Counted from the stretch's first letter, positions 3,129 to 50,759 are shown. The stretch: 64,000 bases of DNA from an uncultured Bacteroidales bacterium (GCA_963800645.1 CAWDBX010000011.1:64831-128830); one strand, 5' to 3'. A program made the numbers and translations. Notes: generated by a model from the sequence alone, not told the origin.

Positions 3129-4271
3129 TTAAAAGCTGATTTGTAACTGTAAAGCTGCAAAGTTGTTGTCAACACTTGTGCCTTCTTCTTGTTTAAAAGT
3201 ATATGCTGCCTGAAGCGCAGCATTAGGATTAATATAGTAGTTCAAGCCAAAAGTTATGTTGTTGGAAATATTATCATCCTGATCAACATCTTTGTCGAAC
3301 GAATCGTAGCGACCAGCCAACTGAATTTTATTGGGTAATAAAAAGGCAGCAAGCTGAGCATAATATCCCGAACGGGAAACTTCGCCATCCTGAAATACAA
3401 TATACTCTGCCGAGACGTTTAAAAATTTATACGTATAGTTGATTTCGCCTCCAAGTCTCCTTCGTTTTCCCAGTTGTTCAGAGGAAACATTTATTCCAAT
3501 TTTACTAAGAGAAAGTGAGTCGGGAGTCCAGCCCGAAACAAACGAACCTCCCAAATCAAGTCCTTTAGCAGGATGAAGTATTAATCTTCCACTAATGTCT
3601 TTCCCGTCGGTGAGATCGGGTCTGTTGATCCCTGAGCCGTTAAATACCCCAATCCGATATTCGACTAGTTTTGAATCGTTAAACGAAATCAGGCTTCCGA
3701 AAACAGTAATTCCTATATCACGCCCATTATTGTCACCCAATATATCGCCCCTGCGGAAAGTTGCAGCTTCCACAACCTGTGCCCTGTCAGCAAGTATTAA
3801 TTTCGTATTTGAAGTAACATTATTTAGTGAAAAAGGTAATAATTGCTGACCGATAGTAAAACTGATTTCATCACGCGGTTTCAGTTCGGTATACACATCA
3901 ATAATTTTAGGCGATGTGGCAAAATCAGTCTGTAAACGGTAGCTCCAATAGGGAGTTATATCGCCTTTGATATCGAGATATGCCCGGCGGATATCAAAAC
4001 CATCTACCTTTACTTTTTGATCTTCCTGAAAGTACTGGTAACGGAATTGTCCATACCCATTAATTTTAAGAGCTTTCCCCGATGTAATCTGGAAAGTTTT
4101 TTTCTTTGCTGCTGATTCTTGTTCTTTTATCGACGCCTCTGCGCGCAAAGAATCAGCCTGTTCCTGAGTTATTGATTTATTGGCTACCAGCAGGTTGAGA
4201 ATGTCGTTGGTGGTTTGTGAATAAACCCGACTGGCAAAAAGCATCAACAGTAAAAGTAAATACTTCTTCAT
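3129..4271 (-). CDS. outer-membrane porin, probably phosphate-selective (porin O/P-like)
   Basis: 380 aa with a signal peptide, alternating beta-strand pattern and a C-terminal ..LQLQISF barrel terminus. It sits immediately upstream of pstS on the same strand. Confidence 0.6.
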   Translation of the reverse strand: MKKYLLLLLMLFASRVYSQTTNDILNLLVANKSITQEQADSLRAEASIKEQESAAKKKTFQITSGKALKINGYGQFRYQYFQEDQKVKVDGFDIRRAYLDIKGDITPYWSYRLQTDFATSPKIIDVYTELKPRDEISFTIGQQLLPFSLNNVTSNTKLILADRAQVVEAATFRRGDILGDNNGRDIGITVFGSLISFNDSKLVEYRIGVFNGSGINRPDLTDGKDISGRLILHPAKGLDLGGSFVSGWTPDSLSLSKIGINVSSEQLGKRRRLGGEINYTYKFLNVSAEYIVFQDGEVSRSGYYAQLAAFLLPNKIQLAGRYDSFDKDVDQDDNISNNITFGLNYYINPNAALQAAYTFKQEEGTSVDNNFAALQLQISF

Positions 4272-4392
4272 GACAGGAGATATTTAAAGGTACATTACAT
4301 TCACAATGTCGACCGACTAAGTGAACAAAAGTAAAGTATCATACCCTAAATGAAACGGGCATAAAGACTAAAAATGCATAGGTAAAAATACG

Positions 4393-15163: not shown

Positions 15164-15174
15164 GCCTTATTTGT

Positions 15175-15247
<73 letters not shown>

Positions 15248-37786: not shown

Positions 37787-38439
37787 ATGCACGACATGGA
37801 GGACAATTTTCAGCATAAAGGTTTGCGCAATAAATTGGTAGAGGAAATCAGACGAAAAGGAATTGTTGACGAAAGGGTTTTGGCAGCGATCAATAAAGTA
37901 CCACGGCACTTATTTATGGACAGTGGATTCATCAAATTCGCCTACCGTGATCAGGCTTTCCCGATAAGAGCCGGACAAACTATATCGCAACCCTATACCG
38001 TTGCCTTTCAGACGCAGCTGCTTGAGGTGGATGCCGATGCACAAAGTGCTTGAAGTAGGAACGGGTTCGGGATACCAGGCAGCAGTGCTGGCTAGAAATG
38101 GGGGCAAAAGTTTATACCATCGAAAGGCAAAAGGAGCTTTATCTCTTATCGCAATCGCTGCTGAGCTCTTTGCATTACCGTCTTCATTTCTTTTATGGCG
38201 ACGGATACCAGGGATTACCCACTTACGGACCCTTTGACCGTATCCTGATTACCGCCGCAGCACCTGAAATTCCCGAAAAACTCCTCGAACAGTTAAAACC
38301 CGGAGGCAGGCTTGTGGTGCCGCTTGGCGGGGAGAAATCACAAGTAATGACATTGATAGAAAAGAAGGGAGAAAAGGATTACAAAAAATCGGAACACGGA
38401 TTATTTGTTTTTGTTCCAATGTTAGGCGGAAAAGAATAA
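37787..38439 (+). pseudogene. pcm: protein-L-isoaspartate O-methyltransferase, two frameshifts (about 38030 and 38100)
   Basis: Three frames read ..GQTISQPYTVAFQTQLLEV / ..KVLEVGTGSGYQAAVLA / ..GAKVYTIERQKEL...DRILITAAAPEIP...GGRLVVP... Confidence 0.85.
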
Positions 38440-39181: not shown

Positions 39182-42052
39182 ATGAATAATGACCATTTCG
39201 CTTACAGACATACCGGACCCCGGTTGGAGGAAATTCCATCCATGCTGGAAAAGGTTGGTGTAAGTTCACTGGATGAATTAATTGATAAAACGATTCCCGC
39301 CGGCATCAGGCTAAAAAATAATCTGCCATTAAAACCGGGAATAAGTGAGCAGGACTATCTGAACAGGATCCGTGAGATTGCTTCCCGGAACAGGCTGTTC
39401 AAAACTTATATTGGCATGGGTTATTACGGTACGATCATGCCTGCGGTTATTCAACGTAATATTCTGGAGAATCCGGGCTGGTATACTTCCTATACACCTT
39501 ATCAGGCTGAAATCTCGCAGGGAAGACTCGAGGCGCTCCTGAATTTCCAGACCGTGGTGCTGGAACTCACAGGCATGGAAATTGCCAACGCATCTTTGCT
39601 TGATGAAAGCACGGCAGCAGCAGAAGCCATGATCATGCTTTATAATGCCCGTCCGAAAGACACAGTAAACAGTGGTGCTAACCGGTTTTTTGTGGATCAG
39701 AATGTTTTTCCCCAAACCCTTGAGGTGGTTATTACCCGTGCCGGTATGCTGGGTATTGAGGTTTTAACCGGAGATTTCAATGACATGGATCTTTTACCGG
39801 TGTATACGGTGCGCTGGTTCAATATCCTGCCGGTGATGGTAAGGTAAGGGATTACCGTACTTTCGTTGACCAGTGCGCATTCCAGGAACATACCGGTTGT
39901 AGTGGCTGCTGATATTCTGAGTCTTGTTTTACTTGTGCCTCCTGGTCAATGGGGTGCCGATGTCGTTATTGGGTCTACACAAAGGTTCGGAATTCCCATG
40001 AACTATGGGGGACCTCATGCTGCATTTTTTGCAACACGGGAATTATACAAACGATATATTCCTGGTCAGGATAATTGGTGTGACCGTTGACAGGGATAAC
40101 AGGACGGCATTGCGTATGGCATTGCAAACCCGGGAGCAGCATATAAAAAGGGAAAGAGCCACATCGAATATTTGCACGGCCCAGGCTTTATTGGCCAGCA
40201 TGGCAGGTATGTATGCCGTGTACCATGGTCCCGAAGGATTTAAAAGCCATTGCCTCACGCATCCGTCAGCGGGCAGGCTCCTTGCGCGATAAGCTTGTTG
40301 AGTTGGGATATCATGAAGCAAACGTCGATTTTTTCGATACTTTGCATATTTACCCGCCAACCGGTATTTCGGTGGAAGAAATCAGGTCCGTTGCTGTTGA
40401 AAGGGAGCTCAATTTCAGATATTATACCGACAACAGTATTGGCATTGCCCTGGATGAAACTACCGGGGTGGATGATCTGAACAGGATCGTGGAAGTATTT
40501 GCCACTGCCGTCAGAAAATATGCCGGACTTATTTCGGAGGAGACTATCGGGGCTGACGGAATCCACAGGAAGTTCCTCCGGACCGACAATTTTATGAACC
40601 TCATTTTGTTCAGAAGATATCGTTGCGAAACCGAAATGATGCGTTATATTAAAACTTCTGGAAAGAAAGGATTTTTCACTCACACATGGTATGATCCCAT
40701 TGGGTTCCTGTACCATGAAGCTTAATGCTGCAGTGGAAATGCTCCCACTGAGCTGGCCCGAGTTTGGAAATATGCATCCTTTCGTTCCCCTGACCAGGCA
40801 GAAGGTTATCACCAGATATTCCACGAATTGGCGGGATTTCTTGAAATCCATCACCGGACTCGAAGAAGTTTCTTTTCAGCCAAACTCCGGAGCAGCGGGT
40901 GAATACGCCGGATTACTGGTGATCAGGAAGTACCTTGAAAGCAGAAATGAAGCTCACAGGGATATTGTTCTCATACCTGCGTCGGCACATGGTACCAATC
41001 CGGCCAGTGCAGCCATGGCAGGGATGAAGGTGGTAGTGGTCAATTGTGATGAAAAGGGAAATATCGAACTGTCCGATTTGAAAGCTAAGGCTGAGCTTCA
41101 TCAGGATAATCTGGCGGCTTTTATGGTCACCTATCCCTCCACCCATGGTGTATTTGAATCGGCCATACAGGAAATGTCTGCCTTGATTCATCAATACGGA
41201 GGTCAGGTATACATGGATGGAGCAAATATGAACGCACAGGTTGGCCTTACCAATCCTGCTCAGATTGGTGCAGATGTTTGCCATCTGAATCTGCATAAAA
41301 CCTTTGCCATACCCCATGGTGGTGGCGGACCCGGTGTGGGTCCCATAGTGGTGGCCAGCCATCTGGTGAAATTCTTGCCGGCCCACCCGGTGGTTCCCAC
41401 TGGCGGTGTACAGGGCATTACGGCCGTTGCCTCAGCACCCTGGGGAAGTGCCGGCATACTGACGATCTCACATGCCTATTGCTGTTTGCTTGGGGAAGAG
41501 GGATTATCCTATGCCACCAGGATAGCCATCTTAAATGCCAATTACCTGGCATCCTGCCTGAAAGATTATTACAAAGTATTGTATACCGGGGAAAATGGCT
41601 ATGTGGGACATGAAATGATCCTTGATTGCAGGGGTTTTAAAGCTGTTTCCGATATAACTGAAACCGATATTGCCAAAAGGCTTATGGATTATGGATTTCA
41701 TGCACCAACCCTTTCATTCCCGGTTCATGGCACATTGATGGTGGAACCCACGGAAAGTGAATCGCTTTATGAACTCAATCGGTTTGCGGAGGCATTGATT
41801 GCTATTCATAAAGAGATTGAAGCCATTAAGGACAGCGGAAATAAAACGGATAATCCATTGAAAAATGCCCCTCATACCCAGCTGGTGATTTCTGCAGAGA
41901 ACTGGGATCACCCATATACCAGGAAACAAGCAGCTTTTCCCAGTGAATCAAGTGAACGAAACAAGTTCTGGCCCTCAGTCAGCAGGGTTGATGATGCATT
42001 TGGCGACCGGAACCTGGTGTGTACGTGTATTCCAATTGACGCTTACCGGTAG
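39182..42052 (+). pseudogene. gcvP: glycine dehydrogenase (decarboxylating) GcvP, about 4 frameshifts between 39850 and 40720
   Basis: Five consecutive overlapping ORF fragments cover one protein of about 950 aa (..YTPYQAEISQGRLEALLNFQT.., ..[22 protein letters not shown].., ..[17 protein letters not shown]..). Confidence 0.9.
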
Positions 42053-42106
42053 TTTTTTGAATTAGTATACAGCCGAAATTTATTTTTAAGCTTTTTTTTC
42101 GTATAC

Positions 42107-42769
42107 TTGTTCAATACCCGACAATTTTTTGAATTGAAGGGTTACTTTTTCTCATTTCACAGTATTAAGCATCTGATGAGGTCAATGAAGTATTCAGACG
42201 CGGAACTTCTTAACGGATTGATAACCCGGGATGAAAAAGTTCTCCGGGAGTATTATGCGCTTTATTATCCGGGTATTCGGCGTTTTATAATTTCGAACAA
42301 TGGCAGCGAGGAAGATGCAAGGGACCTGTTTCAGGATGCATTGTTGGTTATATTTCAGAAAGTTCGTGGAGGACAATTTGAACTTACCTGTTCTTTAGGA
42401 ACGTACATCTATTCCATATCGCGGTTTTTATGGCTGAAAGAGTTGAACAAACGAAAATGGGTAACCCGTAAATCCTTTGATCTTGAGGATTACATCGATA
42501 CCGGTTCGGATATAGGCCAAATCAGCGAACATAATGAACGAATGAAACTGTACAGGGCATATTTTGACAAGCTCTCCTCCGATTGCCGGAAAGTTTTGAG
42601 CCTGTTCATGGAAGGTCATTCCATTGCTGAGATTACCGTTATAATGGGATACAGCAGTGAACAGCATACCCGAAATCGTCGATACCGCTGCAAAACCTCA
42701 TTGATTGACAGTATCAGAACTGAATATGGTCATGAATTAGTTGCTTATGGAAACGACAAGGATAATTGA
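42107..42769 (+). CDS. sigma-70 family (ECF-like) RNA polymerase sigma factor
   Basis: Region 2 (..ARDLFQDALLVIFQKV..) and the region 4 HTH (..CRKVLSLFMEGHSIAEITVIMGYSSEQHTRNRRYRCK..). The real start is probably an internal Met (MKYSDAELL..). Confidence 0.8.
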   Translation: MFNTRQFFELKGYFFSFHSIKHLMRSMKYSDAELLNGLITRDEKVLREYYALYYPGIRRFIISNNGSEEDARDLFQDALLVIFQKVRGGQFELTCSLGTYIYSISRFLWLKELNKRKWVTRKSFDLEDYIDTGSDIGQISEHNERMKLYRAYFDKLSSDCRKVLSLFMEGHSIAEITVIMGYSSEQHTRNRRYRCKTSLIDSIRTEYGHELVAYGNDKDN

Positions 42770-43508
42770 ACAATATTTTGACGGCACGCTGAGTGAGGAA
42801 GAAAAGCATGCCGTTGAAAGCCGGATTCACCTGGATAAAGAATTCCGGGAGCTGATCAGGCTGCACAAAGATGTCAATGAAAGTATCAGGGACAATGATC
42901 TTCACTTGCTTCGTGATCGCATCGGGGATATTGGCAGGGACTACCTCGACAATCCAGATTCAGCTTCGCAGAAAAGATGGAAAAAACAAAACAGGATATC
43001 TTATGCGAATGTTTTCCGTATCGCCGCTGTATTTATCTTGGTTGTAGCTGCAGGGGTCGTTCTCAAACTGACCGTTTTTAGCCACACCTCTGCTGAGGGT
43101 CTTTACACTAAGTTTTATAATGCTTATGACGCTGACATGGTGTTGCGGTCTCCTCAGGATGAAGAAAAAGCCCTCGATAAAGCAATCAGGCAGTATGATC
43201 TGGGCAATTATTCGGAGGCTCTGGCATTGCTTGATGAAAGCATGCTTAATCACCCCGGGGATTATCTGGCTTTGTTCTACAGGGGTCTTGTATGCCTGGA
43301 GACCGGGGACACACCACGGGCCATCCAATCCTTTATTGCAATTCCGGGCGACTGGAACAGCCCGTTTAATGAACATCTTCACTGGTATTTAGCCCTGGCG
43401 CATCTTAAAAACAACAGCAAACCAGCAGCTGAAGAAATACTTGGCCAGATCAGTTCTGGCGGGGGATTCTATGCGGAACGGGCAAAATTGATTTTGAAGA
43501 AGCTTTAG
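42747..43508 (+). CDS. single-pass membrane protein with extracytoplasmic TPR domain (anti-sigma-like)
   Basis: It overlaps the sigma gene 3' end by 23 nt (29 nt if the TTG at 42741 is used). The N-terminus is METTRIIEQYFDGTLSEEEKHAVE.., the TM helix is ..VFRIAAVFILVVAAGVVL.., and TPR-like helices follow. Confidence 0.5.
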   Translation: METTRIIEQYFDGTLSEEEKHAVESRIHLDKEFRELIRLHKDVNESIRDNDLHLLRDRIGDIGRDYLDNPDSASQKRWKKQNRISYANVFRIAAVFILVVAAGVVLKLTVFSHTSAEGLYTKFYNAYDADMVLRSPQDEEKALDKAIRQYDLGNYSEALALLDESMLNHPGDYLALFYRGLVCLETGDTPRAIQSFIAIPGDWNSPFNEHLHWYLALAHLKNNSKPAAEEILGQISSGGGFYAERAKLILKKL

Positions 43509-46500
43509 CCCTGAATCTCCTGTACAAAAAAAATACCAATATAATGATGAACGCGGGAATGGTAAGGATCAGCCATGCATAAATCCTTATCATGGGCACC
43601 GGTGCCGTTTTTCCGACAATAACATAACCTGCCCAGTAAAAGGGATGTGCTTTTACAGGTTCTGCTTTTTCAAGAAAACTTAGTTTTGCCTCCTGCAGGG
43701 CATTATCGAGGGTTTGCCGGTGCCGGAGTCCCTGATAAAAAAATTTGACCAGACTTGAACCTGCCTGATCAGCAACCGGCCAAATTGTATAGGCCACTGT
43801 CCGTACACCGGTATAAAAAAAACTCCGGGCAATACTGACCAGGCCTTCACTGTTGCGCAACAATCCATAGCCGGTGTTGCATCCGCTTAATACTACCAGT
43901 TGTGCATCCAGGTCCATCTGCATAAGCTCATAGGAATAGAGATTGCCATCTTCGTTTGAATCGGCAGGGGCAGTCATTACCAGGCACGATAAACCGGGAT
44001 TTTTCTCATCCACAATCGTATGCGAGGCAATATGCAATACCCGGTAACGGTTTGCACGGGCTTTAAAAGTTGATTTATCGGCCTTGATTCCCCGGTAAAG
44101 TCTGCCTCCTGTCAGGTTTTTTATTGTCCGGGCTTCAGAAGCTGCCCCTTCAAGAGCCAACAGACCGTTACTTCCTGCACTGTTGTTTCCCGGTTTGTAT
44201 TCGGGCAGAAAAATAGCCGTTCCGGTACCATACTTTCTTTCGCGGTCCCGGTCAATTAACAGGTTGGCGGAGAAGGCATAGGCAACAGGGAATTCCCGGA
44301 TCAGGTACTGGAGTGATCTGTAATCGGGTGGACCATCGTTCACCGGACGCTTTTTGATCAAAACCTCAAAGGGCAACAAAGTAAGCTGGTTATGCGGGAT
44401 AATGATGAGCCGTTTGTTTTTGATCTTGTCGTAAACGGGTTCAATTAATTTCGTGTAGAGGTAATGGGAAGATTCGGTAAATTCCCGATAATTTATTTCC
44501 GGATCGGTTTGCAGGGGATTTGAGACAAGAGCATCGCGTAGTTTGGCAATACTCCGGGCTACCTGTTTATCAATAAATTGGAAGTGAATATGAAAATCGC
44601 TCTTCGTGATCACAAAGGTGATGATTTCTGTACTTAATAACTGATATTCCAAAACAACCTGATCATTATCAAGAGCTTGCTGAATCTGGTCCACTCCGGC
44701 CACGGTAAAATTGTATTTCAGCCGCTTGTACACCGGGTAGTTTTCGTCCAGGTAAGCTGTCAGAGCATCCCGCTTACCATATAACCGGGCCAGTTTATTC
44801 AATGCCCCGTCCTTTGATCCGTTGTTTCTTCCATACTTTTCATCAAGGGCCAGCTGGTTCTCGATTTCCAGGATCTCATTATTCAGGATTTCATTCTTTC
44901 TGACCAGCGAATCGGGCAGGCCGGAGTATAGCAGGTTATTTTTCTTCATGGTATTAATGGATAATACCTGCATCTTACTCTTCTCGGCATATTCCCATGC
45001 TTTTTCGGCATACTGTTTTTCACCCGTTCTCAGATAGAGCAATACGGCATAACTTACCGTGTTGTTCATGGGTATCCGGATAAGGTCGGCTATGATCATG
45101 CCGGACTTTTCCTCATCTATATCAATTACCCTTTTCTCAATTAGTTTCACGGCCAGTTCCTGACATTTTAAGGAGTTCACCAGGTGGCTCAAAGGATTTT
45201 CCTCCTTTTCATATATCGAGTAAAAAATATACGCTTTAATGGTCAGGCATTTTATCAGGTTTTGGGTCAGTACGATATCCTCCAGGACCGGATTGGCATA
45301 GACTGATGTATCACTAAAGGAATGACAGCCTGCAATGATGGACTGCTGAAGACAGGATAAAGCTTTCAGGTGATTACCGGTGGTATTGTAAGAATTACCC
45401 AATTCCCTGTAAATATTGCTGATCACATTTCCTTTCAGGGAATTTTTTCTGGCAAGCTCAAGTCCCCTGTAGAAATAATTTCGGGCTGTAATATGTTTAT
45501 TTTCAAGAAGAAATATACGGCCCAATTCATGATAGGCAAGTGAGCCATGGTAGTTATTTCGGTACGACTCATTTTCTGAGGCAAGGGCAATAACTTGATT
45601 GAGATTTTTTATGGCAGATGCCTTGTCATTTAACATACTGTAAGATAGCCCTTTAATATAATACATGTACGTCGGGGAGACGCTCGTTTGTTGCATTTTG
45701 GTGATGGCCTGGTTACAAAAAGCGATGGTCTTTTCATAGTCCCGTTCAAGCCAGAAGTAACCATCGGCCACAGTATAATAATTCAACCTTATGTAATTAT
45801 TTAAGAAAGAATACTTTGAAATAATCTCAAGGGCATGTTTGCTGTATTGAAGCGCATTTTCAAAATCACACCTGGAATATTCCATTTGAGCTTCACGTGT
45901 GTAGAAAATGCCGGCATAAAAGTGATCGGAAGGGAAAAACTTATCCAGGATGAAGGTTATATTCCGTGAAAAATCCTTGGTAATGGAGAATTGATCATAG
46001 AAGTCAAACCGGTTTTCGTGAAGTCTGAGATATACCTCCAGTAACGCTGGATGTAAAGGATCTGCAAGGGTATCGAGATATTCCAGACAGTCCCTGAACA
46101 GCCTTCTGGATCGGGTTTTTTCATTATTTGACCAACAGGCATCGGCCATTTTAGCTTTAAGACCGATCGGTCCGTGAAGGTTGGGCATTTTTCGACCAGA
46201 CTGGATTTCAAAAGCCAGCCGGTAGGATTCTATTGCGGCAGGGTATTCTCCCTGCTGATAAAGAACGCATCCCAGGGCATCCTTTAACCTGGCACCCTCC
46301 ATGGGATTGAGGTTTTCAATAAGCCCGACATATGATCCGGCACGGCGAAGCCATTGCAATGATTCCGTATTTTTACCATCAAAATGCAAATACCTTCCTT
46401 TCTGAAGAGCGTGCAGAAATTGTAAGGGTGGTCCCGGAAGCCGGAGATGTACCATTATTTTTTCAGCCTCGTCAAGCATCTCTTTTGCAGCGCCGGTGTT

Positions 46501-46764
46501 GCCCTGCCTAAGATATACTTCGCTGGTTTTCAATAGCCATGCTGCCTCATCTCCATCATCGGACAAAGAATGCTGGCCATTATGCCTGGCAAGTTGTAAT
46601 GCTTTCTCAAACTGGCAGTTCTGCAAACAGCTGTAAAAAATTGAATCCGCACTACCTTCGGCCTCCTTAAAACCTGAGGAATGACCAGTTAAATCCAACA
46701 TACCACAGTAACAGAAAAGGAGGAGGATTACCAGGCGGGATATTATGGGAAGGAAAGAGGACAT
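43450..46764 (-). CDS. TPR-repeat CHAT-domain (caspase-like) protease, membrane-anchored
   Basis: 1104 aa, intact. It has an N-terminal hydrophobic segment and about 800 aa of TPR-like repeats. The CHAT dyad is His915 (..VLHIASHT.., 44020-44022) and Cys962 (..VVLSGCNTG.., 43879-43881). A C-terminal TM helix follows. Confidence 0.85.
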   Translation of the reverse strand: MSSFLPIISRLVILLLFCYCGMLDLTGHSSGFKEAEGSADSIFYSCLQNCQFEKALQLARHNGQHSLSDDGDEAAWLLKTSEVYLRQGNTGAAKEMLDEAEKIMVHLRLPGPPLQFLHALQKGRYLHFDGKNTESLQWLRRAGSYVGLIENLNPMEGARLKDALGCVLYQQGEYPAAIESYRLAFEIQSGRKMPNLHGPIGLKAKMADACWSNNEKTRSRRLFRDCLEYLDTLADPLHPALLEVYLRLHENRFDFYDQFSITKDFSRNITFILDKFFPSDHFYAGIFYTREAQMEYSRCDFENALQYSKHALEIISKYSFLNNYIRLNYYTVADGYFWLERDYEKTIAFCNQAITKMQQTSVSPTYMYYIKGLSYSMLNDKASAIKNLNQVIALASENESYRNNYHGSLAYHELGRIFLLENKHITARNYFYRGLELARKNSLKGNVISNIYRELGNSYNTTGNHLKALSCLQQSIIAGCHSFSDTSVYANPVLEDIVLTQNLIKCLTIKAYIFYSIYEKEENPLSHLVNSLKCQELAVKLIEKRVIDIDEEKSGMIIADLIRIPMNNTVSYAVLLYLRTGEKQYAEKAWEYAEKSKMQVLSINTMKKNNLLYSGLPDSLVRKNEILNNEILEIENQLALDEKYGRNNGSKDGALNKLARLYGKRDALTAYLDENYPVYKRLKYNFTVAGVDQIQQALDNDQVVLEYQLLSTEIITFVITKSDFHIHFQFIDKQVARSIAKLRDALVSNPLQTDPEINYREFTESSHYLYTKLIEPVYDKIKNKRLIIIPHNQLTLLPFEVLIKKRPVNDGPPDYRSLQYLIREFPVAYAFSANLLIDRDRERKYGTGTAIFLPEYKPGNNSAGSNGLLALEGAASEARTIKNLTGGRLYRGIKADKSTFKARANRYRVLHIASHTIVDEKNPGLSCLVMTAPADSNEDGNLYSYELMQMDLDAQLVVLSGCNTGYGLLRNSEGLVSIARSFFYTGVRTVAYTIWPVADQAGSSLVKFFYQGLRHRQTLDNALQEAKLSFLEKAEPVKAHPFYWAGYVIVGKTAPVPMIRIYAWLILTIPAFIIILVFFLYRRFRAKASSKSILPVPHRIPRQN

Positions 46765-46864
46765 GCGGGATGATTGTTTCTGATATTAAAAATAAGCATA
46801 AACGCTATTGACTTTAACTTTGAAATGCATTATTTTTAAAGTTATTCATTAATACCTTTTAGTT

Positions 46865-46978
46865 ATGGAGGAGTTAGAACAATCAAAATTATTGGCAAAG
46901 AGCAGCAGCAAGGTACCGGAACCGCAACCTCCGGATCCTGAGCCTGAACCAGGTGAACCTGGTGACCCGGATGATTAG
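46865..46978 (+). CDS. possible 37-aa acidic Pro-rich small ORF (speculative)
   Basis: MEELEQSKLLAKSSSKVPEPQPPDPEPEPGEPGDPDD. It is a GC-rich island in an AT-rich intergenic region and diverges from the CHAT gene. I have no homology evidence. Confidence 0.2.
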   Translation: MEELEQSKLLAKSSSKVPEPQPPDPEPEPGEPGDPDD

Positions 46979-48024
46979 GATGAAACCTGACCGGTTGATT
47001 CATTGCGGTCAGCTACGTAATTTCGCCATTTTTCAATAAGAAGTTGCATATCAGCTGGCAAGGGTGAGTCAAAAAACATTTCCTTTCCGGATTCGGGATG
47101 TCTGAAACCTAGTGATTTAGCGTGGAGGGCGTGACGTGGTATAAGTGAGAAGCAGTTTTCAACAAACTGCCGGTATTTTGAAAAAACCGTACCCCGCAGG
47201 ATTTGGTTCCCGCCATAACGCTCGTCATTAAAAACAGGGTGCCTGATATGCTCCATATGAACCCTGATCTGGTGGGTACGGCCTGTCTCCAGCCGGCACT
47301 CAATGAGACTTACATATCCCAGTGGTTCCAGCATTCTGTAATGGGTAATAGCAGGTTTCCCGGATTCCCCATCGGGAAAAACCTGCATTTTAAGGCGGTC
47401 CCTTATGCAGCGACCTATATTTCCGGTAATGGTACCTTCCGGCGGATCGAAGGTTCCCCATACCACCGCATGATAGTTTCTCTTTGTAGTCCGATCGAAG
47501 AACTGTTTGGCCAGCCGGTTCAATGCCAGTTCCGTTTTGGCCACGACCAGTATACCCGAAGTATCTTTGTCAATTCGGTGAACCAAACCGGGCCTGATCT
47601 CACCTGATTGGAAAAGAGGTACATCTTTCAGATGCCAGCAAAGTGCGTTAACCAGGGTGCCGGTATAATTACCATGGCCGGGATGGACCACCATTCCCGC
47701 CTCCTTATTCACCACGATCAGATGCTCATCTTCAAACAGAATATTAATGGGGATATTCTCAGGAAGGATCTCATATTCACGGTGAGGATAGGGGAGCACA
47801 ACGGTGATCACATCGGCTGGTTTGACCCTGTAATTAGATTTTACGGAGCCGTTGTTTACGAGAACATTACCAGCTTTAACAGCCATTTGTATTTTATTCC
47901 GGGAAACATTTTCGAGCCGGTTGAATAGAAATTTGTCGACCCGCAGCAATCCCTGGCCTTTATCGGCAACTATGCGGTGATGTTCATATAGTTCCGACTG
48001 ATCAAATAATTCTTCCTGCATCAT
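46975..48024 (-). CDS. rluD: RluA-family 23S rRNA pseudouridine synthase (RluD-like)
   Basis: N-terminal S4 domain and the ..HRIDKDTSGILVVAK.. catalytic motif. Confidence 0.9.
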   Translation of the reverse strand: MMQEELFDQSELYEHHRIVADKGQGLLRVDKFLFNRLENVSRNKIQMAVKAGNVLVNNGSVKSNYRVKPADVITVVLPYPHREYEILPENIPINILFEDEHLIVVNKEAGMVVHPGHGNYTGTLVNALCWHLKDVPLFQSGEIRPGLVHRIDKDTSGILVVAKTELALNRLAKQFFDRTTKRNYHAVVWGTFDPPEGTITGNIGRCIRDRLKMQVFPDGESGKPAITHYRMLEPLGYVSLIECRLETGRTHQIRVHMEHIRHPVFNDERYGGNQILRGTVFSKYRQFVENCFSLIPRHALHAKSLGFRHPESGKEMFFDSPLPADMQLLIEKWRNYVADRNESTGQVSS

Positions 48025-48032
48025 CCTTTGCT

Positions 48033-49909
48033 TTAATGACCAACAACTATTTTGCGGCTGATGATGCGTTCATGATCCGTGTATAGGATCACCTGATAAA
48101 TGCCTGGGGGGAAACCTGAAACATCGAGAAAATCAAACTGGTCCTGCAACTGTGAAACCAATCTGCCATAAACGTCATATACATATACCCGGCTTATGGC
48201 AATGCCGTTTGACTGGATGAAAAGCCTTCCGGACACAGGATTAGGAAATAAAATAATGTCGGCCGGTGTGTCAGGGATCTCTCCTGTGCCGGTCACCACG
48301 TCCTTGCTCCCAAACACTGCTCTGATCATGACAGATCCCGGAATAATGCTGTTGCCCGGATTGTACCATTCTCCGGAGGTATTTACAAATGTCCTGTCGA
48401 CATTATTGCGGTTCACATCGTAACCCAGGTTAAGAAATTCATCCGTAACCTGCTTCCATCCGACATAAACTACCGTATCGGTTATCAAAAGGCCAGGATC
48501 TGAACTTAAGGCATAACGCTTAAATTGTGGTATTCCCGATCCAAGATCAGGTCTGAACTCTTCGGGTGAAAGATACAGAAGCTCGCCTGGTTTTCCTCCG
48601 TCATCCTTCCATACACAAATTTGAAATCCAAGTTCAGCATTGTAATTGTCCCGGGCTTTATTGAAAAACATATCCAGAGCTCTTAAGGTATCGGATTTGT
48701 ACACTCTGAAACGGTATGCCAGCAAAGCTCCTGCCATGGACGGACCTGAAATGCCAAAGCCATATTCCGGCGTGCCGTCATCATAGGCATAGTAATCTTT
48801 GAAATTCAGAACAGTTTTGGCCGTATCATTTGGTTTATACTGACCTTCAGGGGTGATGAGGAAGCCTCCGACCTCAAAGCTTCCCTCGTCGGAATCATCA
48901 TTGCGGGTGAAGGGGGCAATAAAGGGATCGTTTCTGCGGATAATTTCCTCGGGGTCAAAATCATCAAAAAATTCCTCCGAATATTCGATAAATCCGGTAT
49001 GGAGATTTTTGGCATAATAACTTCTGCCAAGATTCAAAATTCTATCCTTCTGCAGGTTGCGAAAAACAAATTGCAGATAGTTGCGGGTAATGCTCTGGGC
49101 GTCATTGAGGTGTTGCCAGGGGATGATCTCGTAAAAATCCATCAGATTTCTGGGGGGCTCTATAAGTGCAATATCGTTGATGAACCGGTGATCAATAGAA
49201 GGCAGGGTATTCATCATGATATAATCAATATTCCAGCAATCGACATTACTCAATGCACCCTCGCCACCGGCAACTTCCTCGGGTGAAAGGCTGGTATAAT
49301 TCCTGAACCTGAAGCGAAAACCACTTTGGTAATATGTTTCAGGCACCGGCAGGATCACTTGCTGAAACAGGGTGGCTGTATCCAGAATGGCAAACCATTC
49401 TTTGTTCCATCGGTTCTCAGCAGGTGAATAAAACTCCAGCAAAAGGGAGTCCTTTATCTCCGGGACCTCTCCCTTACCGCCTGATTGATAAAAAAAACTA
49501 AGGATGACCGTATCCTCCGGTAATGAGTAGGATGACAGATCAAAGCCCTGGCTAGTAAGTACATCCGACGAGGCGGGCCAACTGGTCTGGGCATAAACGT
49601 TACCGTTTTCATCAATGGCATCGAGGGTCGCCACACCTATTGACATGGGATCCTTGCCGAAGGAATTGTTAATAAAAACATACTGGTCGGTCCACTTGCA
49701 GGATCAGGAAAAACACCTTCGGAAGAGAAATCTTCAAAAAAGGGAAGGGTCAGTAATGGGGCGGCTTTAGCTGACTTTAACGTATAGGGATGGTCCAGCC
49801 GGTATTTTTTTATCACCTGGTTTTCCGTAAGTCCCTGCAGACTTTGAGCGGTAAGCCTTGAACCGGCGAGTAAAAGCAGAAGACAGCATATGTATCGGAA
49901 GCGGTTCAT
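48033..49909 (-). pseudogene. T9SS-sorted secreted protein, function unknown; one frameshift near 49640
   Basis: Signal peptide MNRFRYICCLLLLLAGSRLTAQ. The C-terminal roughly 75 aa (..ILFPNPVSGRLFIQ...PGIYQVILYTD..) form a type A Por/T9SS sorting domain. Confidence 0.75.
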
Positions 49910-50759
49910 CGGTTAAGAGACAGGGTATCACTCTGGCATTAAAAGAGGTAACTTTTGCAGAATCCAGTGTAATCCATACATCAATTGTTGAACCCATCGG
50001 AAGTGTCATGTTGGATCCCGGTTCAGGCTTCTGCTTAAATATAATGGCCTTTAATTCATCTTCCGCAGTGACAATGGTTTGATCCCGGACAGCAGCACCT
50101 ACGCTTAAGAACCTGTCGGAAGCCAATATCTTGGCTTCTTCCAGCAACAGTCCGACAAGGTTTGGAACGGCAGCCTGTTCATCACTCAATCCTTTTCCCA
50201 ACACCAGGTCCACATGTGCCCCCTTAACCACTGAATCGCCGGGCGACACTTCACGACCGCTCATTCTTTGGGCCAACACTATGTTGATGCCCATGTTTGG
50301 TTCATAAGTAATGCGGCCTACCTTTAGTCCGAATGACTCCAGTTTGGCACCGGCCTGACGGAAGGTAAGATCTACCAGATCAGGCATAGCTACCTTTTCC
50401 GGATTAACGGCATTCATGGTGAGAAAGATCTTACGGTTCTTTTTTACCTTAAAACCAGCCCGAGGGTGCTGTTCCACCACAGTGCCTTTTTCAGAATCGG
50501 CCAGAAAAACAGAATCAAATACCTCAATCCTGAGATCCCTTTTGTTGGCAACCACTTCAGCTTCTGTCAGCGACAGTCCTGCGAAATCAGGAACCGAGAG
50601 ATCCTGGTTATGGCGTGTATATATCTTCAGGATCTGCATAATAATGGCAGTGCCAAAAAGGAGGATCAGAAAAGCAAGCACTAAATTTCTCAGTACAATT
50701 CTTTCTTCAATATACCGTATCAGACTCCTGATGCGGGCAAAGATCTGGTCTTTGTTCAT
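49767..50759 (-). CDS. PASTA domain-containing membrane protein (3' end uncertain)
   Basis: N-terminal TM helix and repeated PASTA-like units (..VPDFAGLSLTEAE.., ..MPDLVDLTFRQA.., ..VPNLVGLLLEEAK..). The last roughly 48 codons overlap the next gene and may reflect a lost stop or a frameshift near 49940. Confidence 0.7.
   Translation of the reverse strand: MNKDQIFARIRSLIRYIEERIVLRNLVLAFLILLFGTAIIMQILKIYTRHNQDLSVPDFAGLSLTEAEVVANKRDLRIEVFDSVFLADSEKGTVVEQHPRAGFKVKKNRKIFLTMNAVNPEKVAMPDLVDLTFRQAGAKLESFGLKVGRITYEPNMGINIVLAQRMSGREVSPGDSVVKGAHVDLVLGKGLSDEQAAVPNLVGLLLEEAKILASDRFLSVGAAVRDQTIVTAEDELKAIIFKQKPEPGSNMTLPMGSTIDVWITLDSAKVTSFNARVIPCLLTDEPLPIHMLSSAFTRRFKAYRSKSAGTYGKPGDKKIPAGPSLYVKVS

Follow-up and report, generated by a model that had tools for sequence, protein, structure and literature searches.

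Do a gene for a predicted caspase-like protease and two adjoining genes, one for an ECF-type sigma factor and one for a membrane protein with tetratricopeptide repeats (TPR), belong to one signalling pathway, and what would be the part of the protease in it? We met the three genes in a stretch of 64,000 nt from an uncultured Bacteroidales bacterium (the window). ECF sigma factors are the main envelope-sensing route of the Bacteroidota, and very few of the proteases that activate them are known. Caspase-like CHAT proteins abound in bacteria, and almost none has been characterised. Just two examples with a link to sigma factors have been studied, craspase and DdvA; both are recent, and proteolysis by DdvA is hypothetical. 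The triad described here points to an unstudied envelope-to-gene signalling pathway in the Bacteroidota.

Architecture of the locus

The TPR-CHAT gene (43450..46764, minus strand) lies tail-to-tail with a plus-strand operon consisting of the sigma gene and the gene of a 253-aa TPR protein. An independent assembly (Logan, ERR10755939; L080) matches positions 41668-46178 at 99.85% and without gaps. A first-pass annotation of this DNA had described an intact 1104-aa minus-strand ORF with His915 and Cys962, a 59-nt 3' overlap of this ORF with the sigma/anti-sigma-like operon, and the lack of any CRISPR context; all three observations hold. The overlap (43450..43508, assigned to neither strand) is real and stems from a C-terminal tail particular to the lineage of the window. 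At most homologous loci, the genes overlap by 4-16 nt or leave a gap of a few bases instead. For comparison we used 79 genomic loci with CHAT homologues, down to about 25% identity, 46 of which show the tail-to-tail abutment (-67 to about +130 nt). A scan of 41900-47100 for sigma-70 promoters and intrinsic terminators gave counts at chance level and no terminator between the convergent genes.

Neither a CRISPR array nor tandem repeats nor an Rfam CRISPR family was detected within the 64-kb window. A Cas7-11-sized ORF is absent, no further ORF reaches 750 aa, and Cas7-11 or CRISPR-type genes are not recurrent among the 79 homologous loci. The intactness of the long gene in a region rich in frameshifts had also been considered notable. 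This impression did not withstand a simple calculation: with about 5 frameshifts per about 15 kb of adjoining coding DNA, the probability of finding none in 4.66 kb is about 0.2, which is not significant.

A predicted membrane-anchored TPR-CHAT protease

The minus-strand gene encodes a protein with a predicted N-terminal signal sequence (residues 1-27 approximately, 46684..46764), which consists of a hydrophobic helix (residues 5-23) and is followed by a stretch of low pLDDT (24-34) in the AF2 model. A comparable hydrophobic N-terminus was seen in 52 of the 63 N-terminally complete homologues. Residues about 31-700 (44665..46674) make up a TPR-like alpha-solenoid according to Pfam (TPR_12, TPR_1, TPR_8, TPR_MalT) and to the AF2 model, which is all-helical here. 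The CHAT caspase-fold domain follows at residues 764-1052 (43609..44475) and matches PF12770 over profile positions 2-289 of 289 (E=3.8e-55; 187.8 bits, cutoff 24). Its catalytic dyad, His915 (44020-44022) and Cys962 (43879-43881), is invariant among 12 orthologues and accounts for two of the four columns that are invariant in total in a 64-sequence alignment. By profile and dyad, the protein is a member of the CHAT proteases (clan CD, caspase fold) and thus a predicted protease.

A C-terminal transmembrane (TM) anchor (residues 1061-1083, 43516..43584, minus strand) precedes a basic cytoplasmic tail; in the AF2 model the helix spans residues 1061-1090. Such a TM segment was scored in 68 of the 78 C-terminally complete homologues (Kyte-Doolittle 19-mer, threshold 1.8), and most of those under the threshold have a visible TM segment plus an R/K tail. 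A sortase-type sorting signal was considered for this combination and rejected; since no conserved motif precedes the helix, we read helix and tail as a plain anchor. The bulk of the protein is predicted to be extracytoplasmic, as the first-pass annotation had it, and this topology is supported across the CHAT family.

PDB searches with the CHAT domain alone gave nothing relevant (spurious LRR matches), and those with the full-length CHAT profile gave TPR proteins and no others. Because these sequence and profile searches missed all of the relatives named below, fold comparison was needed to recognise them. Using the AF2 model (pLDDT 88.4, pTM 0.83), the top Foldseek matches, all with probability 1.0, were Csx29 (8eey_B, E=6e-15), separase (2e-14) and DdvA (8rot_A, 6.7e-13); the low TM-scores (0.2-0.5) are what flexible solenoids lead one to expect. 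The modelled protein fits the architecture common to these three, a helical-repeat solenoid followed by CHAT.

The sigma factor and its presumed anti-sigma factor

The sigma ORF as listed spans 42107..42769 (plus strand). Its true start is probably ATG 42176 or 42185, corresponding to a protein of 194-197 aa (42176..42769). The protein passes the NCBIfam model TIGR02937 sigma70-ECF (50.7 bits, cutoff 42.9), matches Pfam Sigma70_r2 (E=1.6e-6) and, weakly, Sigma70_r4_2 (E=0.019), and reaches no NCBIfam equivalog or subfamily cutoff; its family profile matches the structures of SigW, RpoE and SigH. Having sigma-2 and sigma-4 regions alone and scoring above the cutoff of the ECF model, it is classified as an ECF (group IV) sigma factor by sequence. 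Cys134 and Cys169 are invariant across the sigma family.

The start codon of the downstream gene (ATG 42747; gene 42747..43508, plus strand) sits inside the sigma gene, resulting in a 23-nt overlap. The encoded 253-aa single-pass membrane protein is probably an anti-sigma factor, as suggested by its position, its topology and sub-threshold matches to zf-HC2. Residues 1-68 (42747..42950) form a predicted cytoplasmic three-helix module (AF2 helices 2-12, 17-29 and 31-68) that resembles an anti-sigma domain and carries the conserved pattern IEKYLDGxLxxEE..FE..L..D.EL. In the family alignment, this conserved module shows no His/Cys zinc ligands. The zf-HC2 match (PF13490) is sub-threshold in the protein itself (E=0.03) and was obtained for 5 of 21 family members, with a best value of 0.0014 and all under the cutoff. 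Among the domains that the first-pass annotation had expected HMM searches to confirm, CHAT, TPR and Sigma70_r2 were indeed significant, whereas zf-HC2 stayed below threshold and Sigma70_r4_2 was weak. Some family members carry the N-terminal module in three to four tandem copies, which is unusual for an anti-sigma domain.

A basic stretch (KRWKKQNR) precedes the TM helix (residues 84-110, 42996..43076), which has a hydrophobic core in the AF2 model and is conserved in the alignment. Beyond it, segment 124-141 is non-helical, with a mean pLDDT of 53 in block 131-140, and contains a conserved Arg134-Ser135 pair (43146..43151; Arg134 in 104 and Ser135 in 86 of 114 family members). Arg134 is located 24 residues past the TM helix, in what appears to be a flexible periplasmic juxtamembrane linker, and would be a candidate cleavage site. 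The periplasmic TPR domain (residues 142-252, 43170..43502) is built of helix pairs with a pLDDT around 90 and is recognised by Pfam TPR families, TPR_16 matching the protein at E=6e-11. Co-transcription with the sigma gene combined with a single-pass N-in topology, a trait of class I anti-sigma factors, is predicted for this protein, whose family comprises at least 512 clusters (50% identity) at E<=1e-30.

Conserved linkage of the three genes

In the first-pass annotation the connection between protease and sigma factor had rested on adjacency only, and conserved synteny of CHAT homologues with the sigma/TM-TPR pair was to decide about it. The connection no longer depends on a single locus: the sigma family of the window occurs in 63 and the TPR (anti-sigma-like) family in 62 of the 79 CHAT loci, that is, in about 80%, in five gene orders. 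Reversing the search gave the same picture: of 45 informative sigma/TPR pairs taken from metagenomes, 39 had a CHAT gene and 6 lacked one nearby. Any other neighbour family is present in at most 27 of the 79 loci. The three genes occur in five different arrangements, among them convergent (46 loci), divergent (7), sigma|CHAT|anti (5) and co-directional (2). Co-inheritance of the triad extends over Bacteroidota and Chlorobiota and is maintained under several gene orders; one culturable carrier is Maribacter antarcticus DSM 21422 (L076). Pairwise distances co-vary as well, with r=0.85 for CHAT versus the anti-sigma-like protein and r=0.74 for CHAT versus sigma (Mantel p=0.001). Also in favour of the linkage, more remote relatives of the sigma factor (29-35% identity) are paired with another partner and lack CHAT. 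A clade of Saprospiraceae departs from the pattern: its CHAT protein has the same architecture, and no sigma/TPR pair lies within 8 kb.

An accidental adjacency might come to mind, as ECF sigma factors and TPR-CHAT genes are both numerous in the Bacteroidota and the genes of the window are convergent and not co-transcribed. With about 22.5 ECF sigma factors per genome in Bacteroidetes (PMC7826278), we estimate the chance of a sigma gene adjoining CHAT within 2 kb at about 2%, assuming genomes of 4-5 Mb. The co-occurrences in both directions, in five gene orders and at least two phyla and at CHAT identities down to about 25%, have already refuted coincidence, and its residual probability is negligible. 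The conserved synteny strongly favours a functional link among the CHAT, sigma and TPR genes.

A promoter-like motif upstream of the sigma gene

Directly 5' of the sigma start we found a promoter-like dyad, GGTTAC-N18-ATTAA (42140..42168, plus strand), which is the sole match with at most one mismatch in the 64-kb window. In 36 of the 64 homologous loci compared, GTTAC/GTTAAC-N17/18-ATTAA precedes the sigma start by 27-44 nt (76-82 nt in two loci). A strict regular expression matched 46 times in 1.09 Mb, compared with about 17 times in shuffled sequence, and 26 of these matches were upstream of sigma. The dyad is probably an autoregulated ECF-type promoter giving rise to a leaderless or near-leaderless mRNA.

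This motif bears on the proposal that the CHAT protease does not regulate the sigma factor but is one of its outputs: an effector acting on the envelope (quality control, remodelling or defence) that the sigma/anti-sigma pair, sensing the signal alone, would switch on. Genes neighbouring ECF sigma factors are often under their control (PMC7826278), and a sigma-type dyad does occur on the CHAT strand, 500-900 nt ahead of the gene, in one Bacteroidales clade (L046, L055 and L057) and in Maribacter (L065-L067 and L077), so in these lineages CHAT can be an output too. The overall distribution argues against the proposal: a PWM scan located the dyad upstream of sigma in 45 of 77 cases and upstream of CHAT in 4 of 77, and since it precedes the sigma gene so much more often, CHAT fits an input better than an output. 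We searched for the dyad before the CHAT gene of the window and did not find it, nor did it match elsewhere in the 64 kb besides the sigma promoter. Moreover, co-divergence with the anti-sigma factor as tight as that of sigma would be surprising for a pure output. We therefore regard a mere output role as rather improbable.

A proposed model of trans-acting proteolysis

The reading we prefer, and which in our estimation has about an even chance of being correct, is that the triad forms one envelope-to-transcription signalling module in which the CHAT protease cuts the anti-sigma factor and so frees the sigma factor. At rest, the three-helix cytoplasmic module of the 253-aa protein would keep the sigma factor membrane-bound. 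With only about 8 residues between the CHAT domain and the anchor, the active site would be placed on the periplasmic side of the inner membrane, while the long TPR solenoid would extend into the periplasm as a sensor. Activation would come from the periplasm, through a ligand of the TPR arrays that is probably a protein or a peptide. The active protease would then cleave the anti-sigma factor within the flexible linker next to the membrane, perhaps on the C-terminal side of the conserved Arg134. CHAT would thus be the site-1 protease that strips off the periplasmic TPR domain; an RseP-type intramembrane protease and cytoplasmic proteases would complete the degradation, and the released sigma factor would transcribe its own operon and a further regulon. 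Because anti-sigma domain and TPR-CHAT reside on two polypeptides, the proposed DdvA mechanism being split, cleavage would be in trans by design. More tentatively, and with somewhat less than even confidence, we propose in full that this is a widespread pathway of Bacteroidota and Chlorobiota, in which a TPR-CHAT protein at the periplasmic face serves as trans-acting site-1 protease and, on ligand binding, cuts the neighbouring anti-sigma factor after the conserved linker arginine. Several points speak against the model: cleavage by DdvA is itself a proposal, the match to an anti-sigma domain is sub-threshold and the tandem modules of some family members are unusual for such a domain, CHAT can also be an output in some lineages, and the Saprospiraceae clade as well as 6 of the 45 pairs lack the full triad.

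The synteny and the topology would also be accounted for if CHAT worked together with the anti-sigma factor without cleaving it, as a co-receptor or shield that binds through TPR-TPR contacts, comparable to RseB on RseA. The protease would then target itself, an incoming signal protein or envelope substrates, and the sigma factor would be freed by loss of the contact and by another site-1 protease. Both periplasmic parts are TPR arrays, typical modules for protein-protein binding, and dyad mutants of DdvA repress as normal (PMC11506125). On the other hand, the invariance of the dyad over the whole CHAT family implies that catalysis matters, and a membrane-proximal CHAT domain together with a conserved Arg-Ser in the exposed linker of the partner is well explained by direct cleavage and would be superfluous for a shield. 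This makes such a role unlikely, if still worth serious consideration.

Comparison with known systems

The first-pass annotation had likened the locus to Csx29-Csx30-RpoE of type III-E CRISPR systems. The fold is shared (8eey_B being the best Foldseek match), but the nearer precedent is DdvA/DdvS of Myxococcus. In DdvA, one polypeptide holds the ZAS anti-sigma domain, the TM helix and a TPR-CHAT part located in the periplasm; stripped of TPR-CHAT, it becomes exposed to RseP. Cleavage by its CHAT domain is a proposal, and dyad mutants had no phenotype under the conditions tested (PMC11506125). In both systems, an ECF sigma gene adjoins that of a periplasmic, membrane-tethered TPR-CHAT protein whose dyad is His-Cys, a small helical domain in the cytoplasm leads via one TM helix into a flexible periplasmic linker, and CHAT is the proposed site-1 protease that acts before RseP. 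The layout differs. DdvA runs from the ZAS domain through TM helix, linker and scaffold to TPR-CHAT and is anchored N-terminally, whereas in the window the anti-sigma-like protein and a TPR-CHAT protein with signal peptide and C-terminal anchor are encoded by separate, convergent genes, the CHAT protein having a signal sequence instead of an anti-sigma domain. The 253-aa protein has a small TPR domain of its own and lacks zinc ligands, unlike the zinc-binding CHCC/ZAS domain of DdvA. The sigma factor is not close to DdvS (top PDB matches SigW and RpoE), and no CBASS or CRISPR regulon is nearby. DdvA-like proteins have been reported in Myxococcota and one Comamonas and in no others (PMC11506125); the triad occurs in Bacteroidota and Chlorobiota.

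Type III-E craspase (Cas7-11, Csx29, Csx30/Csx31, RpoE) shares the TPR-CHAT fold and a protease substrate functionally tied to a co-encoded ECF sigma factor. It is, however, cytoplasmic, RNA-guided and CRISPR-associated, whereas the window has neither Cas7-11 nor an array, its protein carries a predicted signal sequence and membrane anchor, and a TPR protein of the membrane takes the place of Csx30 as partner. Since defence is the context of both bacterial TPR-CHAT systems that have been characterised alongside ECF sigma factors, the module might be an anti-phage sensor whose sigma factor activates distant defence genes. Conflict systems combining caspase, ECF sigma and TPR have been predicted (PMC8195603), some genomes contain several copies of the module, and tandem duplicates occur. 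Yet none of the three proteins matched PADLOC-DB 2.0 (E<=0.01), and CRISPR or cas genes are lacking in the window. The neighbours are housekeeping genes (gcvP, MBL hydrolase, PCMT and rluD) whose conservation reaches 27 loci at most, pointing to a stable place in the core genome rather than to a defence island. A defence function is in our view very improbable.

The signalling module we favour resembles RseA/DegS/RseP and RsiW/PrsW/RasP, the canonical cases of regulated intramembrane proteolysis of anti-sigma factors, in having a single-pass anti-sigma factor co-transcribed with an autoregulated ECF sigma factor, and in the supposed order of events, in which cleavage at site 2 depends on a first, periplasmic cut at site 1. 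In the canonical cases that first cut is made by a PDZ serine protease or a metalloprotease whose gene lies elsewhere, whereas the candidate site-1 protease here is a clan CD caspase-fold cysteine protease with a TPR sensor, whose gene adjoins that of the presumed substrate. Separase, the eukaryotic TPR/ARM-CHAT protein, likewise joins a helical solenoid to CHAT (Foldseek E about 2e-14) and cleaves after Arg in acidic-x-x-Arg; the conserved D-x-x-x-R-S of the partner protein resembles this motif, a resemblance only. Separase differs in being eukaryotic, nuclear/cytoplasmic, securin-regulated and devoid of membrane anchoring. EACC2 and DUF1822 domains were not found in the window proteins; the EACC2/DUF1822/ECF54 systems have different domain sets and are not described as periplasmic, and ECF54 is actinobacterial and lacks an anti-sigma factor. 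Among the papers searched, none describes a CHAT/ECF triad of Bacteroidota.

If cleavage is true, the CHAT protein would be the first caspase-like signal-sensing protease of an ECF pathway with enzyme and substrate separate, and the triad a tractable model for the still unproven mechanism of DdvA. Because enzyme and presumed substrate are separate proteins, the cleavage hypothesis is directly testable. The module also provides a testable functional annotation for at least 512 clusters labelled merely 'tetratricopeptide repeat protein' and for the neighbouring 'CHAT domain-containing proteins'. The triad is present in cultured Maribacter strains.

Gene organization of the triad

All three ORFs claimed in the first-pass annotation are present as described there. 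They comprise a TPR-CHAT gene of 1104 aa on the minus strand (43450-46764) and, on the plus strand, an ECF sigma gene followed by the gene of a 253-aa single-pass TPR protein. Homologue comparison and an independent gene call place the sigma start at ATG 42185 (MKYSD...) or 42176, and the sigma-type identity of the product holds, with the NCBIfam ECF model TIGR02937 passed at 50.7 bits (cutoff 42.9) and Pfam Sigma70_r2 passed as well. The anti-sigma-like gene starts 23 nt within the sigma gene (ATG 42747), and its stop (43506-43508) sits 59 nt into the 3' end of the CHAT gene, in agreement with the 3' overlap noticed before. An assembly artefact can be dismissed as the source of the three reading frames, since window positions 41668-46178 match an independent short-read assembly (Logan contig ERR10755939) with 99.85% identity and no indels. 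No terminator-like structure separates the convergent genes, which overlap or abut both at 43450-43508 and in homologous loci. Transcription of the sigma operon, once induced, would thus continue antisense into the CHAT gene, and feedback by transcriptional interference is possible.

Conservation of the linkage

The link between the CHAT gene and the sigma/TPR pair had been considered to rest on adjacency alone. A GTDB scan (one genome per species, orthologue alignment as query) yielded 225 relatives, from which 79 loci were taken forward, and all six-frame ORFs of these loci were searched by phmmer with the window's sigma and anti-sigma-like proteins. A sigma homologue was found in 63/79 CHAT loci (E from 1e-107 to 1e-8) and a homologue of the TPR protein in 62/79, the two genes almost always adjoining each other and the CHAT gene. 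The gene order varies: 46 loci are convergent tail-to-tail like the window, seven are divergent, two (Chlorobiota) are co-directional, and in five, for example locus L025, the sigma gene lies against the CHAT 3' end while the TPR gene diverges from the CHAT start. Five further loci show another or partial configuration with a single partner detected near CHAT. Neither partner was found in 14 loci; in several of these the contig ends within a few hundred bases of CHAT, and most of the others belong to a Saprospiraceae clade.

Bacteroidetes genomes carry on average 22.5 ECF genes (PMC7826278), i.e. about one per 200 kb, so that by our estimate any ECF gene would be expected within 2 kb of a given gene by chance in about 2% of cases. 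In the reverse direction, a metagenome scan starting from the sigma factor, in which loci with a family-type TPR partner and sufficient flanks were counted (n=45), revealed a CHAT gene in 39 of these 45 informative loci; sigma relatives at 29-35% identity have another, longer downstream partner and no CHAT gene. Chance adjacency is excluded by the counts in both directions, and with several gene orders represented, the association goes beyond mere adjacency. All-against-all ORF clustering of the 79 loci returned only three near-universal families, namely CHAT (79), sigma (65) and the TPR protein (65). The family ranking fourth, gcvP (27 loci), reflects shared ancestry of the closest Bacteroidales. 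Carriers of the triad comprise Bacteroidales, Rikenellaceae, Lentimicrobiaceae, Maribacter, Winogradskyella, other Flavobacteriaceae and Chlorobiota. Two of them, Maribacter antarcticus DSM 21422 (locus L076) and Maribacter sp. Asnod2-G09 (L067), are culturable. Among 60 triads, pairwise distances correlate between CHAT and TPR (r=0.85), CHAT and sigma (r=0.74) and sigma and TPR (r=0.85; Mantel p=0.001), which fits inheritance of the triad as a unit, yet is confounded by species phylogeny.

Several loci deviate in copy number. Two tandem CHAT genes are found in L016 (3195-9956) and L041 (2238-9992), two consecutive sigma/anti-sigma-like pairs beside a single CHAT gene in L029 (6078-9496) and L033 (7726-10149), and several MAGs contain two separate loci (e.g. 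L030 and L052, L035 and L047). In the sub-clade with the order anti-sigma-like/CHAT/sigma, a protein of about 300 aa with a histidine-kinase-like phosphoacceptor motif (HEIRTPMNSILGF) is encoded directly 3' of the anti-sigma-like gene, in L025 (4730-5629) and eight other loci. Six Saprospiraceae loci (L042, L044, L063, L064, L069 and L079) encode a TPR-CHAT protein without the sigma/anti-sigma-like pair within 8 kb; the signal sequence and C-terminal anchor are retained in all except L079. Any partner of these proteins would have to be encoded elsewhere.

The TPR-CHAT protein

The 1104-aa protein belongs to the CHAT family and, by its architecture, to the TPR-CHAT class. The Pfam CHAT match covers residues 764-1052 (E=3.8e-55) and spans all 289 profile positions, and several Pfam TPR families have matches within residues 40-480. 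Twelve orthologues with 40-64% identity, all from uncultured Bacteroidales, are alignable end to end, the best name among them being 'CHAT domain-containing protein'. The residues proposed as catalytic, His915 and Cys962, are invariant in 12/12 orthologues and, in an alignment of 64 sequences down to 17% identity, are the sole invariant columns together with Gly986 and Trp1044. The confident AlphaFold2 model (pLDDT 88.4, pTM 0.83) consists of a hydrophobic helix (residues 5-23), a disordered stretch (24-34), an all-helical solenoid up to about residue 700, the alpha/beta CHAT domain and, about eight residues beyond the latter, a C-terminal helix (1061-1090). Foldseek searches of the PDB with this model retrieved the type III-E craspase component Csx29 (8eey_B, E=6e-15), human separase (9hma, E=2e-14) and the Myxococcus anti-sigma factor DdvA (8rot_A, E=7e-13), each with probability 1.0; sequence-only searches of the PDB recovered none of the three.

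The predicted topology, with the bulk of the protein extracytoplasmic and a C-terminal anchor, is supported family-wide. Among the homologues of the 79 loci, 68 of the 78 that are complete at the C-terminus have a hydrophobic 19-mer that exceeds the Kyte-Doolittle threshold and, behind it, a tail rich in Arg/Lys, and the same feature is visible in most of the remainder; by the positive-inside rule, this basic tail would be cytoplasmic and the bulk of the protein outside. A signal-like N-terminus is present in 52/63 N-terminally complete homologues; 12 of these 52 have a strict small-x-small-Gln motif, as substrates of signal peptidase I in Bacteroidota typically do.

The sigma factor and its putative anti-sigma factor

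In the sigma protein (42185-42766), Cys134 (LSxxCRxxL) and Cys169 (RRYRCK, region 4) are invariant among 17 diverse family members, and a third cysteine (TCSL) is common in the family; a structural or redox role is possible.

The 253-aa protein matches TPR_16 (E=6e-11). According to the alignment and the AlphaFold2 model (pLDDT 81), its N-terminus holds three helices (residues 2-12, 17-29 and 31-68) with the pattern IEKYLDGxLxxEE..FE..L..D.EL. They are followed by a basic, disordered stretch and the TM helix (84-110), after which come another short helix (116-123), a segment of low confidence without helical structure (124-141) and about four TPR pairs. We read the N-terminal pattern as similar to that of class I anti-sigma domains, with other residues in place of the zinc ligands. 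We grade the assignment as anti-sigma factor as probable only, because zf-HC2 matches stay below threshold, in this protein (residues 5-24) as in the family, where they occur in 5/21 members. The family is large and sharply bounded: a profile search of 1.84 billion representatives gave 512 clusters at E<=1e-30, nearly all of 236-265 aa and matching end to end. About 20 representatives (e.g. P0146, P0152, P0189 and P0261) reach 395-514 aa through repetition of the cytoplasmic N-terminal helical module (IEKYLxGEL...DIMELR), which stands in three to four tandem copies ahead of the TM helix and TPR domain; such repetition is unusual for an anti-sigma domain.

Outside the TPRs, the most conserved feature of the family is a juxtamembrane motif, [LIV][YF]xx[YF]YxPYxxD(x3)RS. 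Its Arg134 (43146-43148), located in the flexible segment 24 residues beyond the membrane, is kept in 104/114 family members and the following Ser in 86/114.

A promoter-like dyad upstream of the sigma gene

A dyad of the form GGGTTAC(T4)-N-(G)TATTAA precedes the sigma start in 36/64 loci, at a distance of 27-44 nt in all but two; its Flavobacteriaceae form is GTTAAC-N17-CATTAA. The strict pattern matches 46 times in 1.09 Mb (26 before sigma) versus about 17 times in shuffled sequence. In the window, the dyad at 42140-42168 is the sole match with at most one mismatch in 64 kb and ends 8 nt ahead of ATG 42176, which suggests that the sigma operon is autoregulated and its mRNA leaderless or near-leaderless.

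A reading in which the CHAT gene is an output of the sigma factor would be favoured by the copy found 500-900 nt upstream on the CHAT strand in a Bacteroidales clade (L046, L055 and L057) and in Maribacter (L065-L067 and L077). However, of 77 matches to a two-block PWM at >=14 bits, 45 lie before sigma, 28 elsewhere and only four before CHAT, and a search upstream of the window's CHAT gene revealed none, making this reading distinctly improbable. Taken together, the CHAT gene is more likely an input to the sigma factor than one of its regular outputs, and in some lineages positive feedback would be added.

A good copy of the sigma-type dyad in L057 (4306-4336) also lies ahead of a gene for a 123-aa Cys-rich, zinc-ribbon-like protein (3916-4287) located just 3' of the anti-sigma-like gene, as in L046, L055 and L037. 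In this clade, the protein is a candidate for membership in the regulon.

Proposed mechanism and relation to known systems

The analysis shows the linkage, the fold, the His/Cys dyad and the topology features; beyond these, we infer a mechanism for the triad. An anchor some eight residues away would hold the CHAT domain against the inner membrane on its periplasmic side. The candidate substrate, the anti-sigma-like protein, would sit in the same membrane and present its conserved Arg-Ser, within a flexible linker, at a similar height. Several enzymes of clan CD are Arg-specific, among them separase, metacaspases and gingipain R. In the simplest model, which in our judgement has an even prospect of being right, the TPR solenoid would sense a periplasmic ligand, the CHAT domain would then cleave the anti-sigma linker (site-1 cut, predicted to fall after Arg134), and an RseP-type protease would finally free the sigma factor. 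The main rival, somewhat unlikely in our view, keeps the three-protein complex and has the protease cleave something else.

The system would work most like DdvA and its ECF sigma factor DdvS. For DdvA, in which the parts are fused, the same mechanism has been proposed, though not demonstrated, and DdvA lacking its TPR-CHAT part becomes exposed to RseP (PMC11506125). The present system is not a DdvA-type anti-sigma factor: the parts are not fused, a zinc site is lacking and its sigma factor has no close similarity to DdvS. DdvA-like proteins were reported from Myxococcota and one Comamonas only (PMC11506125). Nor is the TPR-CHAT protein a craspase: consistent with the lack of CRISPR context remarked upon earlier, Cas7-11 and an array are absent, and the protein has a predicted extracytoplasmic location. 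A defence role of the triad is possible but not favoured, given that PADLOC gave no matches, CRISPR and cas genes are absent and the neighbours are housekeeping genes. Genome-only precedents for caspase-type proteins beside ECF sigma factors are ECF54, with an adjoining caspase-family peptidase (PMC8999054), and the EACC2-caspase systems with a DUF1822 TPR protein (PMC8195603), both with domain sets unlike that of the triad. We found no description of the Bacteroidota CHAT/sigma/TPR triad in the literature; an entry in an ECF-group catalogue may exist.

Frame changes in the window

The intact CHAT gene amid frameshifts had appeared noteworthy. With the proteins of the closest genome as reference, at least five frame changes can be counted in about 15 kb of coding sequence next to the triad: three in gcvP (within 39182-42052; near 40069, 40240 and 40650-40850), one in the gene of the protein-L-isoaspartate methyltransferase PCMT (38035-38092) and one in that of a large secreted protein (split ORFs 48033-49909; about 49650-49700, within 49640-49910). 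At this rate, the 4.66-kb triad would escape frameshifts with a probability of about 0.2, so its intactness is uninformative. Only five ORFs in the 64-kb window reach 450 aa. At the one junction inspected (about 40066), a single base seems to have been inserted, and not within a homopolymer; the frame changes are either real mutations or decay, or errors in the sequence. The sole Rfam match in the window is a tRNA gene on the minus strand (15174-15246).
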